Source: Minisyncoccota bacterium
GTDB lineage: Bacteria > Patescibacteriota > Minisyncoccia > UBA6257 > 2-01-FULL-56-20
Assembly (NCBI GenBank): GCA_035509435.1
Contig: DATJLR010000007.1
Span: forward strand, 1,555-65,554
Direction of reading: 5' to 3'
Length of the DNA: 64,000 nucleotides
In this document: piece by piece, positions 957 through 2,804 of the stretch
Numbering within the stretch: the stretch's first letter is position 1
How the letters are laid out: each line of letters begins with the position of its first letter
Position numbers and translations under genes: made by a program
The notes under the pieces: model-generated
Seen by the model: only the letters and a program-made list of their open reading frames with translations
Databases searched by the model: none
What the model was told of the DNA's origin: nothing

Positions 957-2804
957 CTACTTCTTGAGTATCTCGCGGAAGACCTCCGGCGAGATGTCCA
1001 CGCGGGCGCTCGCCTGAAGGCGCTCCTTGCCGGCGGCCTGCTTCTTCCAAAGCTTCATCTTGCGGGTGCGGTCGCCGCCGTTCTTGCCGAAGTTGCCGAG
1101 CTCTTTCTTCATGGCGCTGATCGTCTCGCGCGCGATGATGCGGCCCTGCGACTTCGCCTGGAGCGCCTGCGAGAACTGTTCCTTCGGCAAAAGCTCCTTC
1201 AGGCGCTCCACCGTCTGGCGTCCCTCGCGCTCCAGGTCTTTCTTTGGCACGATGCGCGTGAGCGCGGGAACCACTTCGTTCACAACGACGATCTCCAACT
1301 TTTCCACCTCCGACTCGCGTCCTCCACCGGGCGCCAACTCGTACGTGAACGACGCGTATCCCTGCGACACCGACTTCAGCCGGTCGTCAAAATCGCGGAT
1401 CAGTTCGCGGAGCGGCATCACCGCCTTGACCAAAAGATTCTCGCCGATGTTTTTGACCTCGCCGATCTCCATGTCGAACACCGTCTGCATATTGAGCACC
1501 GCGCTCAGATATTGCTGCGGCGTGAGCACCTCCAGGTCCACGAGCGGTTCCCACACTTTTTCCGGATGGTCCGGAAAATCCTGCGGCTGTTTGATCGTGA
1601 ACACCTGGCCCTTGTCCTGCACGCGATACGCGATGGACGGAAAGCTCGTAAGGAACTGCAGATTGTATTCGCGCTCGAGGCGGCTTGAGATGATCTCAAA
1701 ATGAAGCTGGCCGAGGAATCCGACTTTCAATCCGCGCCCCAGCGCTTCGTTGGAGTCCGGCTCGAAGCTGAGCGCGGCGTCGTTGAGGCGCAACTTTTCG
1801 AACGCGCGCTTGAGGTCGTCATACTTTGTGTCGGCGTCAGGATAGAACGAGATGAAGACGACGGGCGCCGGTTCACGATAGCCGGCCAGCCGACTGGTTT
1901 CTAGTAACTTGTTTCTGGCGTTACCAGTTACTAGTTCCAGGTCTCTCGTTACCAGTACCGTGTCGCCGATCTTCACGAGCGCCGGCTCTTTGAGCCCTGT
2001 CGCGATGTAGCCGATCTCGCCGGTATTTATTTTCGGCGCCGCCAACATGCCCGGCACAAAATATCCCACCTCCTTTGCCTTGAAATTATTTTCGCTTGCC
2101 ACAAGATGCATTTCTTCGGCGGCGAACTCGCCGCCGAACACGCGCACGTTTGCGATGATGCCTTTGTGGTCGTCGTACGCCGAGTCGAAGATGAGCGCTT
2201 TCGAGATCGCGCCTTCCGCGCCCTGCGCGGCGTGCGGCGGCGGAACCTGCGCGATCACCGCCTCGAGCAGCTCTTTGACGCCCGCACCCGTCTTCGCGGA
2301 CACGCGGAAGACGTCTTCGGGCATCACGCCGAGGAGGTCCGCCGTCGCCTCCACCACTTTTTCGATGTGCGGCAGGTTGAGGTCGATCTTGTTCACCGCG
2401 GGGATGAGCTTCAATCCCGCCTTCTGCGCGCCGCGCAGGTTGGAAAGCGTCTGCGCCTGGATGCCCTTCGTGCCGTCAACGAGCAGAATGCCGCCCTCGA
2501 CGGCATTCAGCGCGCGCGACACCTCGTATGAAAAATCGGAGTGGCCCGGCGTGTCGATGAGATTCAGGATAAACGACGTGCCGGCGTGCGGGCCGGTCTC
2601 CGCCGTGTATTCCATGCGCACCGGTGCCATTTTGATCGTGATCCCCCGCTCGCGCTCGAGCGGCATGCGGTCAAGGTATTGCGCCTGCATGGATCGCATC
2701 GGCACCGTGCCCGTGATCTCAAGCAGACGGTCGGCGAGCGTCGATTTTCCACTGTCAATGTGGGCGATGATGACGAAATTGCGGATGTCTTGAGTGGTGA
2801 CCAT
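957..2804 (-). CDS. lepA: Elongation factor 4 (LepA)
   Basis: 615 aa; G-domain IIAHIDSGKSTLADRLLE, DTPGHSDF, NKIDL; conserved LepA C-terminal domain. Confidence 0.95.
   Translation of the reverse strand: MVTTQDIRNFVIIAHIDSGKSTLADRLLEITGTVPMRSMQAQYLDRMPLERERGITIKMAPVRMEYTAETGPHAGTSFILNLIDTPGHSDFSYEVSRALNAVEGGILLVDGTKGIQAQTLSNLRGAQKAGLKLIPAVNKIDLNLPHIEKVVEATADLLGVMPEDVFRVSAKTGAGVKELLEAVIAQVPPPHAAQGAEGAISKALIFDSAYDDHKGIIANVRVFGGEFAAEEMHLVASENNFKAKEVGYFVPGMLAAPKINTGEIGYIATGLKEPALVKIGDTVLVTRDLELVTGNARNKLLETSRLAGYREPAPVVFISFYPDADTKYDDLKRAFEKLRLNDAALSFEPDSNEALGRGLKVGFLGQLHFEIISSRLEREYNLQFLTSFPSIAYRVQDKGQVFTIKQPQDFPDHPEKVWEPLVDLEVLTPQQYLSAVLNMQTVFDMEIGEVKNIGENLLVKAVMPLRELIRDFDDRLKSVSQGYASFTYELAPGGGRESEVEKLEIVVVNEVVPALTRIVPKKDLEREGRQTVERLKELLPKEQFSQALQAKSQGRIIARETISAMKKELGNFGKNGGDRTRKMKLWKKQAAGKERLQASARVDISPEVFREILKK

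Follow-up and report, generated by a model that had tools for sequence, protein, structure and literature searches.

The question raised by this locus is how a short array of repeated DNA words has come to be translated, in frame, inside lepA, and how it relates to similar words found elsewhere in the same genome. The window, that is, the whole 64-kb stretch of DNA analysed here out of a contig of at least 460 kb, belongs to a genome of the candidate phyla radiation (CPR; Paceibacteria/Parcubacteria) with a GC content of 56%. LepA (elongation factor 4, EF4), the host of the flagged segment, is encoded on the minus strand at 957..2804 as a protein of 615 aa. It is 100% identical to the protein annotated as elongation factor 4 in a metagenome-assembled genome (MAG) of 'Candidatus Paceibacterota'; its sequence cluster holds a single member from a single contig, and the nearest LepA among GTDB representative genomes is 86-87% identical. 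The segment within this gene is probably a copy, lacking any open reading frame (ORF) of its own, of an element built from arrays of a 7-nt unit. This element would be present elsewhere as arm-only copies, and its fullest form in this genome would be an intervening sequence (IVS) in helix 45 of the 23S rRNA gene, which carries an ORF for a protein of the 23S_rRNA_IVP family (hereafter IVP).

The initial annotation had described a family of 36-nt, 12-codon units inserted in frame in conserved genes, and its observation of the repeat is partly confirmed: the repeat is real and highly non-random. The 15-mer on which it was based, GTWACTRGTTTCYRG, has 17 matches in the window with up to two mismatches, against 0.37 expected, a number reached in none of 100 shuffles. 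The pattern CYRGWWWCYRG (two cores 7 nt apart) has 8 exact matches against 1.23 expected, and a strict detector, which demands three WWACYRG units in succession, picks out 10 loci where 0.17 are expected; as the arrays are strand-symmetric, these loci give 20 strand-hits. The possibility, raised by the initial annotation itself, that the motif is no commoner than composition predicts is clearly contradicted by these numbers (17 versus 0.37; 10 versus 0.17). The unit, however, is not 36 but 7 nt long, with the consensus WWACYRG (TAACTGG, TAACTAG, AAACCAG). The core spacing is 7 nt in every copy, often in the form of an alternating 14-nt double unit (for example, CCAGAAA-CCAGTTC), and the copies have lengths of 30 nt in ThrS, 36 nt in the gatC-gatA spacer, 42 nt at the rpoBC end, 35 and 49 nt in the IVS arms, ~72 nt in LepA, and 89 nt in the hairpin of helix 68. 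The CYRG core is identical to its reverse complement, which makes an array read alike on the two strands and lets it form pairs within itself.

A simple lag-7 autocorrelation catches only one IVS arm in the window, because the words alternate with a 14-nt period, and the consensus-unit detector was used in its place. Counting repeated 10-mers per locus was uninformative, as the counts were swamped by GC-rich and A-rich low-complexity words. The search for low-GC islands in genes with a high GC content at third codon positions (GC3) also failed to separate the elements from native AT-rich codons, because the elements are only mildly AT-rich (GC 0.33-0.53 versus 0.56). The recurrence of the words elsewhere in the window, as had been claimed, is genuine at several loci, but two matches inside rpoC and one in mltG are native codons. 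Those in rpoC (24303-24327 and 24517-24538), considered as arms of a larger insertion, correspond to the universally conserved beta-prime motifs HIWFLK and KPETINYRT, and MltG was discarded as a host gene, as the match at 28339-28362 reads as native coding sequence (EVPNLADQELVAGII), judged by eye from the translation and from the sequence of E. coli MltG. One further match, at 54928-54948, is borderline.

In LepA, the coding strand reads ...CTGGAACTAGTAACTGGTAACGCCAGAAACAAGTTACTAGAAACCAGT... with the translation VTRDLELVTGNARNKLLETS, as had been annotated. The array (1887..1958, minus strand) consists of ~9-10 heptamer units, which on the coding strand are CTGGTAA CGAGAGA CCTGGAA CTAGTAA CTGGTAA CG CCAGAAA CAAGTTA CTAGAAA CCAGT, and it encodes residues ~283-306 (VLVTRDLELVTGNARNKLLETSR) within the hypervariable GDT...PGY loop. 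The ORF is intact throughout the array; the word CTAGTAA has one open frame only on its strand, and this is the frame used by the LepA copy. The segment had been considered to be ~12 residues longer than that of E. coli LepA, and a similar excess is seen in comparison with solved structures (12 residues versus Aquifex 2YWE, ~11 versus Thermus), whereas the difference with the closest orthologues is of only 4 aa. In these orthologues (82-90% identical) the loop between IGDT and VVF has 32 residues instead of the 36 found in the window, is GC-rich (ILANRDSTGLGAERKSELALPGY), and aligns in part with the window loop. The proposal of a discrete 12-aa block gained with respect to close CPR orthologues must therefore be abandoned: the loop is an old hypervariable hot spot, variable in all 200 orthologues compared (80, and then another 120), and its word-bearing version is shared with one other lineage, L081 (L-numbers are the labels of loci fetched from other genomes). 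This locus, from an independent JGI assembly with 82% nucleotide identity, holds a homologous word-bearing loop in which the words have decayed, while L082, a closer relative (85.6%), has a GC-rich loop instead. Judged from these alignments, the LepA copy is old. Its array shows 3 mismatches in 28 positions with the ThrS copy of the window and 5 in 28 with the L081 orthologue, a closer likeness to another locus of the same genome that hints at homogenisation within the genome.

The copy in ThrS is an exact in-frame insertion of 30 nt (10293..10322, plus strand; GCGCCAGAAACCAGTTCCCAGAAACCAGTT), encoding APETSSQKPV between YETG and TVFMDLC, and the array runs on to ~10330, past the inserted nucleotides. 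The insert is absent from 14 of the 18 aligned orthologues, which read YETG-D/T-VFMDLC; in the window gene, GGT and ACT are separated by exactly 30 additional nt. The uninterrupted site of the relatives reads GAAACCGG, which represents a word-like microhomology. Among the remaining orthologues, L050 holds at this site an insert of unrelated sequence. In L004, as well as in L082 and L083, which are additional to the 18, there is a shorter, GC-rich version (GCGCCGGGCGAARCRCCGGTC) whose junctions are those of the insert of the window. The identification of this copy as a miniature inverted-repeat transposable element, which is defined by terminal inverted repeats and a target-site duplication, was rejected: the insert is a direct array, and its flanks GGT and ACT show no duplication.

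The copies in LepA and ThrS share CGCCAGAAACMAGTTMCYAGAAACCAGT, with 25 of 28 nt identical, and this stretch is read in different frames in the two proteins (NARNKLLETS versus APETSSQKPV). This frame difference excludes an explanation at the protein level and marks the repeat as a DNA-level element. The rpoBC end and one IVS arm are likewise identical in 22 of 28 nt. When eight arrays were compared by pairwise local alignment (28 pairs), the scores ranged from 16 to 46 and most were at least 20, in comparison with null means of ~10-13; the pair LepA-ThrS reached 41, and the pair LepA-IVS arm, 34. These data show that the copies are related at the DNA level, specific to the genome, and read in different frames. 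The central proposal of the initial annotation, that short quasi-palindromic DNA repeats have colonised essential genes with the reading frame kept, is borne out by the ThrS insertion and by the frame difference between LepA and ThrS.

The largest structure built with these words is located in the 23S rRNA gene. The sequence of 483 nt at 35721..36203 (minus strand) replaces positions 1164-1185 of the E. coli molecule, according to an alignment to E. coli 23S rRNA in which its flanks align to positions 1163 and 1186 and GGUACCGAAG...GGUAGGAGAGC is conserved. Its arms, inverted heptamer arrays at 36158-36209 and 35722-35756, are complementary in 87% over 30 nt. Between them lies an ORF (35739..36113, minus strand) for a 124-aa four-helix-bundle protein of the family 23S_rRNA_IVP (PF05635, E=1.1e-28; TIGR02436, E=1.8e-28). 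With helix 45 replaced, long inverted termini and a PF05635 ORF, 35721-36203 is a classical IVS. The IVP ORF is absent from the copies in LepA, ThrS, rpoBC and gatCA. A second insertion in the same gene, which extends the tip of helix 68, is a near-perfect hairpin of 93 nt made of two inverted arrays (34990..35082, minus strand; folding energy -56 kcal/mol, z=-11.4), which maps to approximately E. coli positions 1855-1880. The location of the copies contradicts the statement that they always lie in frame in conserved genes, as three arrays are found in 23S rRNA, one is intergenic, and another one extends across a stop codon.

The IVP protein is distantly similar to Avd of diversity-generating retroelements (E=4e-6 with the Avd model, 27 bits versus a cutoff of 80), and because of this resemblance the copies were also considered as target and template of such a retroelement. 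This reading was discarded: the differences between LepA and ThrS (two A-to-C and one T-to-C) are not all at adenines, and the Avd match is below the cutoff. Scans of 29 ORFs of the window with Pfam or NCBIfam models revealed no reverse transcriptase.

The 23S rRNA gene has other peculiarities. It really extends over ~5.6 kb (32197-37847), enclosed by a perfect processing stem of 25 nt (32197-32221 / 37823-37847). It carries a group I intron (33989-34187) with a LAGLIDADG ORF (34270..34827), and a second LAGLIDADG ORF is found at 32618..33061, beyond the 3' boundary assigned to the gene by Rfam. Another ~360 and ~107 extra nt are located near helix 25 and E. coli positions 271-290, and neither of them contains heptamer words.

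The association between heptamer arrays and IVP genes is not restricted to this genome. Heptamer arrays are found on both sides of all nine IVP ORFs examined in CPR and related MAGs, inverted where the orientation was checked, and 12 of the 18 flanks of these nine cassettes reach a window-dialect score of at least 18, in comparison with 0.19% of 10,377 background segments. In 1.40 Mb of other loci, the window-dialect detector yields six matches, two of which are the arms of a truncated intergenic IVP ORF in L046. In L072, an IVP homologue located between two genes has inverted TATAGAA/TTCTATA arrays on its flanks. Six further homologues from different MAGs (52-75% identical; one MAG is labelled Cloacimonetes), two of them in 23S rRNA and four beside protein or tRNA genes, all hold heptamer arrays on both sides within ~100 nt, with words of the CTGGTAA/CTAGTAA/CTGGTTG type or, in L095, GGTAGGT/ACAAACC. 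It has thereby been shown that the dialect of the copies of the window is also that of IVP cassette arms elsewhere in the CPR. Cassettes outside rRNA occur in L046, L072, L089, L091, L093 and L095, as well as in cyanobacterial plasmids.

Beyond the CPR, 33 plasmid records hold an IVP homologue, almost all of them cyanobacterial. Seven of the eight inspected non-CPR genes (cyanobacterial plasmids and Azospirillum; L097-L106) have arrays on their flanks whose period is 7 nt or close to it, among them that of a helix-45 23S IVS in Azospirillum lipoferum AZO_p2. In two plasmid stretches of ~50 kb, three lag-7 arrays were found in each, two of which abut the single IVP gene. Altogether, heptamer arrays flank four-helix-bundle genes in 16 of 17 cases, in CPR, Cyanobacteria and one alphaproteobacterium. 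This link between heptamer arrays and IVP cassettes, with the same words building the IVS arms, was missed in the initial annotation, and the IVP-carrying helix-45 IVS appears to be the parent context of the array family. Two arrangements on plasmids deserve a separate description. In Pseudanabaena galeata pPg_01 (45977-46852, L103), the IVP gene lies between cas6 and cas4, with (AAAGCTA)x15 upstream and (AAAGCCA)x10 downstream in direct orientation, and in Calothrix plasmid1 a third copy of an AGGGTGT array is located inside a giant coding sequence annotated as 'polymorphic membrane protein' (L105:2244-2283).

Two copies of the window are located at gene borders. The one at the 3' end of rpoB-rpoC (21016..21057, minus strand) encodes the last residues ...VLETSS and the TAG stop codon, followed by a 3' hairpin (-20.5 kcal/mol, z=-4.0). 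The gatC-gatA spacer (52779..52814, plus strand) reads CAAGAAA CTATTTA CCAGAAA CTAATTA CCAGTAC G; here, the whole 36-nt gap between the gatC stop codon (TAG) and the gatA start codon (GTG) is an array, which ends 1 nt before GTG and does not fold. As for the host gene of the former, rpoB and rpoC are fused into a single ORF of 2245 aa (21037-27774, minus strand) with all the Rpb2 and Rpb1 Pfam domains in order. An array of the arm type at L091:2431-2478 provides the stop codon and last residues of dnaX (...AVGLVAGS*), as the rpoBC array does (21037-21057). Elsewhere in the window, ARAGORN predicts at 20320-20394 a tRNA to which it assigns a two-base 'gc' anticodon but no identity, and where Rfam reports no tRNA, and four small minus-strand ORFs at 49039-50729 have a GC3 of 0.36-0.40 versus 0.65-0.83 in the surrounding genes, a block that may be foreign DNA.

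Signs of the same phenomenon are spread over the clade. In 1.46 Mb from ~80 related genomes, 36 lag-7 periodic tracts were detected, in comparison with 10-16 for lags divisible by 3 and ~5 for other lags not divisible by 3; 37 of 51 arrays (73%) fall within open frames of 150 codons or more, versus 87% for random segments. When 34 lineage-specific LepA inserts from ~30 genomes were pooled, their lag-7 identity was 0.378 versus 0.266 after codon shuffling (z=10.5), with further signals at lag 14 (z=6.8) and lag 21 (z=4.1), and these 34 inserts showed no lag-3 signal. LepA has at least two recurrent hot spots, and 17 of 80 orthologues hold inserts of at least 7 aa, one of them a domain of 151 aa, between VRMxY and YxLNLIDTPGH. 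The words vary from genome to genome, with AATT-, CGCG-, AGCT- and CATG-cored dialects. In the LepA of L039 (CAZZGX010000039.1), one element of ~60-100 nt (ACGCGGACACGAAGTCGCAGACAGTCGCAG...) is present at three loops of the same gene, and two of the three peptides, which were compared, contain the same repeat-encoded stretch (TKSQTVA...). The LepA of L056 (10190-10650 of JAGXBC010000001.1, a Patescibacteria MAG) holds a complete GxxExxY domain (TIGR04256, PD-(D/E)xK-like, E=2e-33) in frame within its G domain, and on either side of this insertion lie inverted arrays of the words CGCAGAT/ATCTGCG, which repeat every ~10-11 nt. The inserts at the first LepA hot spot in L029, L036, L040, L042, L045, L047, L049, L050, L067 and L068 differ in their internal words, yet all close with a conserved SNSE[YF]-like junction immediately ahead of ILNLIDTPGH. 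The insertion may have been inherited from a common ancestor, or such junctions may be preferred.

If the LepA segment is an ORF-less copy of the heptamer-array element, its history could be outlined as follows. Arrays would spread by copy-paste or by gene conversion from one array to another, for which word-like microhomology could serve as a primer, and their length would change by slippage in 7-nt steps. Within genes, the only survivors would be in-frame, stop-free copies at permissive surface loops, which would account for the repeated targeting of the same LepA and ThrS loops across lineages. A fixed copy would then be translated as extra loop residues and would slowly decay to an ordinary lineage-specific loop, while copies at gene ends could provide stop codons, 3' hairpins or spacers.

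Several observations weigh against this interpretation. The LepA loop is ~74% identical to that of L081, which is no higher than the identity of the rest of the gene (82%), so the copy is not recent, and the GC-rich loop of L082 aligns partly with that of the window at the protein level. Because L081 shares the loop and that of L082 is partly alignable, the conversion in place of an old LepA loop would be indistinguishable from an insertion. In ThrS, the existence of a shorter GC-rich counterpart with the same junctions (L082, L004) makes the direction of change ambiguous. Mobility is deduced only from dispersal and similarity, because the ThrS copy, examined together with its flanks GGT and ACT, showed neither a transposase nor a target-site duplication nor terminal inverted repeats. 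Hairpin potential is also uneven, being weak in LepA (z=-1.9), null in ThrS (z=-0.07), and mixed in the copies of relatives (z from -5.2 to +1.2); the idea that all copies are hairpins was discarded on these grounds, along with the unfolded gatCA copy. Some dialects of relatives repeat at ~10-11 nt instead of 7, and the IVP association is based on 17 loci rather than on a census.

One rival explanation is that the arrays are microsatellites grown in place by local polymerase slippage, a process said to favour units of 7 nt, with no transfer between loci, and that the shared words are due to mutational bias or to selection for a binding site, such as that of a translational regulator, as has been proposed for the TAACTGA repeats. 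Heptameric simple repeats are over-represented in many bacteria, and slippage has been proposed as their origin, citing Mrazek 2007 (PMC4692102); in Coxiella, the helix-45 IVS holds two to three GACAGAT heptamers upstream of the S23p ORF, whose number differs among strains (PMC4990558). The uninterrupted ThrS site of the relatives is itself word-like and could seed slippage, different loci of one genome have unrelated words in L023, L049 and L026, and the gatC-gatA and rpoBC copies are placed exactly as the TAACTGA repeats of Beggiatoa (PMC4679880). We nevertheless regard this explanation as unlikely, as slippage alone leaves unexplained the 25 identical nt of 28 in the pair LepA-ThrS and the 22 of 28 in the pair rpoBC end-IVS arm, the near-absence of the window dialect from 1.4 Mb of relatives except in the arms of IVP cassettes, and the element of ~60-100 nt present three times in the LepA of L039; besides, 30 nt, the length of the ThrS insert, is no multiple of 7. 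Ordinary lineage-specific loop variation under selection at the protein level, with the likeness of DNA being a coincidence or a by-product of composition, could be argued from the hypervariability of the LepA loop, which is partly alignable (RD..TG..AR.K..LA) between word-bearing and GC-rich versions, and from the native codons that explain the two rpoC matches and that of MltG. It is highly improbable in view of a single 28-mer read in two frames, the presence of copies in rRNA and in an intergenic spacer, the large enrichment over shuffles, and a pooled insert DNA which is periodic at 7 nt and not at 3.

With the DNA-level kinship of the arrays in mind, it can also be asked whether those transcribed into mRNA are translated at all, or whether they form hairpins that are cut, or cut out, by RNase III and would serve as sites of processing or regulation. 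The same words make RNase III-type stems in the 23S IVS and in helix 68, the stem of the Coxiella IVS is cut by this enzyme (PMC4990558), and both the rpoBC 3' copy (z=-4.0) and the LepA insert of L023 (z=-5.2) have good hairpin potential. Every intragenic copy is, however, in frame and stop-free, which for a unit of 7 nt has a chance of ~1/3 per event, and hairpin potential is lacking in the ThrS copy and slight in that of LepA. Religation of mRNA that RNase III has cleaved is not known from bacteria, and a role of the arrays at the RNA level is accordingly given very little credence. In particular, their splicing out of mRNA was ruled out by the maintained frame and the avoidance of stop codons. 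Finally, the sequence comes from a metagenome-assembled genome, and short repeats can confuse assemblers, so a chimeric or mis-assembled low-complexity stretch, or a binning error, has to be mentioned. That this is the explanation is almost inconceivable, given that all host ORFs are intact, that a homologous word-bearing LepA loop is present in the independent assembly L081 and related ThrS inserts in L082, L083 and L004, and that IVP arms with the same words are found in six further assemblies from NCBI, ENA and JGI.

The interpretation of the LepA segment as an ORF-less copy of the heptamer-array element could be extended to a more general one, which is tentative and, in our judgement, somewhat more apt to prove wrong than right. 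Heptamer arrays would be the termini, or recognition sequences, of a widespread family of cassettes built around four-helix-bundle (TIGR02436) and sometimes GxxExxY genes, and the rRNA IVS, the short tandemly repeated repetitive (STRR) and TAACTGA repeats, and the loop insertions of CPR would be states of one element, which could be present as the complete cassette, as a hairpin made of the arms only, as a solitary array, or as a loop in decay. Intergenic space is almost absent from CPR genomes, and the arms-only forms would persist there by being translated in frame. If this were true, the family would continually supply essential proteins with new surface loops and, now and then, with a whole inserted domain, as in the GxxExxY-containing LepA of L056.

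The locus ties together three puzzles that have been treated separately, namely the 23S IVS with its S23p/IVP ORF, the STRR/TAACTGA heptamers, and the insertions in CPR proteins and rRNAs. The origin of the first and the role of its ORF have been a puzzle since about 1990, and here one 7-nt dialect builds the arms of an IVS and also sits, translated, in LepA and ThrS, which offers a testable hypothesis for what IVP proteins act on. The loop insertions of CPR marker proteins may be derived from repeats instead of being adaptive, which bears on alignments and phylogenies, and the arrays may explain the poor assembly of rRNA operons and some core genes in CPR MAGs. A full-text literature search, from which subscription journals were mostly outside, returned no report of heptamer arrays in Patescibacteria or in frame in LepA or ThrS, and none of a general association of heptamer arrays with TIGR02436 genes.

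Several known systems resemble the one described here. The Rickettsia palindromic elements (Ogata et al. 2000) are reportedly selfish elements of 100-150 bp that follow a defined consensus and fold into a stable palindrome, which are said to insert in frame into conserved protein-coding genes (and RNA genes) and to be translated as extra surface segments. The parallel with them drawn by the initial annotation stands as far as a translated repeat inserted in frame in conserved protein-coding genes is concerned (30 nt in ThrS; an intact ORF in LepA), but neither size nor hairpin structure agrees: the copies here have 30-90 nt made of 7-nt units (30 and ~72 nt for the coding ones), the coding ones fold weakly or not at all, and the taxon is unrelated. 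The small dispersed repeats of Nostoc (Elhai et al. 2008) are said to be apparently mobile sequences of 21-27 nt, often within tandem heptamer arrays and sometimes in genes, which would be discrete units with conserved secondary structure that insert into those arrays. Compared by description, the difference is that in the window the heptamer arrays themselves are the dispersed unit.

A close likeness in unit and arrangement is to the heptamers of the STRR type, whose classical cyanobacterial representatives were reportedly described in Calothrix (Mazel 1990, cited in PMC4692102), and to the TAACTGA repeats (MacGregor 2015). Both share with the present arrays a 7-nt unit and short tandem arrays of 2-6 units. 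The units of the window (TAACTGG, TAACTAG, AAACCAG, TTACCAG) are one-base variants, whose inclusion in the TAACTGA family depends on how it is defined, and TAACTGA itself is found exactly in an IVS arm (GGTAACTGATTACTGG); the STRR1 word CCCCAGT has ACTGGGG as its reverse complement, with the ACTGG core in common. The TAACTGA repeats, present in Beggiatoaceae, cyanobacteria and Bacteroidetes, are mostly located just upstream of start codons, sometimes span stop codons and rarely lie inside ORFs; no mechanism has been established for them, and neither IVS nor four-helix-bundle genes are mentioned in their description (PMC4679880). Of the arrays of the window, one is placed directly upstream of a start (gatC-gatA) and one across a stop (rpoBC), while those in LepA and ThrS are internal to conserved domains, and the patchy phylogenetic distribution of both suggests horizontal spread. 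In contrast, TAACTGA repeats are overwhelmingly intergenic, with the few intragenic ones at protein termini or in hypothetical proteins, whereas the arrays of this genome occupy rRNA helices and internal loops of conserved, essential proteins. CPR/Patescibacteria represent a new taxon for such repeats. The related G-rich heptamers of Xanthomonas and Nostoc are also mostly intergenic and under-represented in coding regions (PMC4692102).

With respect to the 23S rRNA IVS of helix 45 or 25 holding S23p/IVP ORFs, as in Coxiella and Leptospira (PMC4990558), the one at 35721-36203 is a textbook member, and that of Coxiella also has tandem heptamers. In CPR, rRNA insertions with 23S_rRNA_IVP ORFs have been catalogued without mention of heptamers or tandem repeats (PMC11270868). 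The copies in LepA, ThrS, rpoBC and gatCA differ from all of these in that they have no ORF and lie outside rRNA, with the coding ones being translated, and neither arm-type arrays dispersed in protein genes nor array-flanked IVP cassettes outside rRNA have been described in the IVS literature. A last comparison concerns the tandem repeats of Borgs, whose units inside ORFs are reportedly multiples of 3 nt. According to their description, they arise independently in these archaeal extrachromosomal elements, are virtually absent from the host, and, like the arrays of the window, are fast-evolving tandem repeats at the nucleotide level which add low-complexity, probably disordered peptide to ORFs (PMC9879509). 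What distinguishes the arrays of the window is their 7-nt unit, the use of common words at several loci, and the fact that their host genes are core housekeeping ones.

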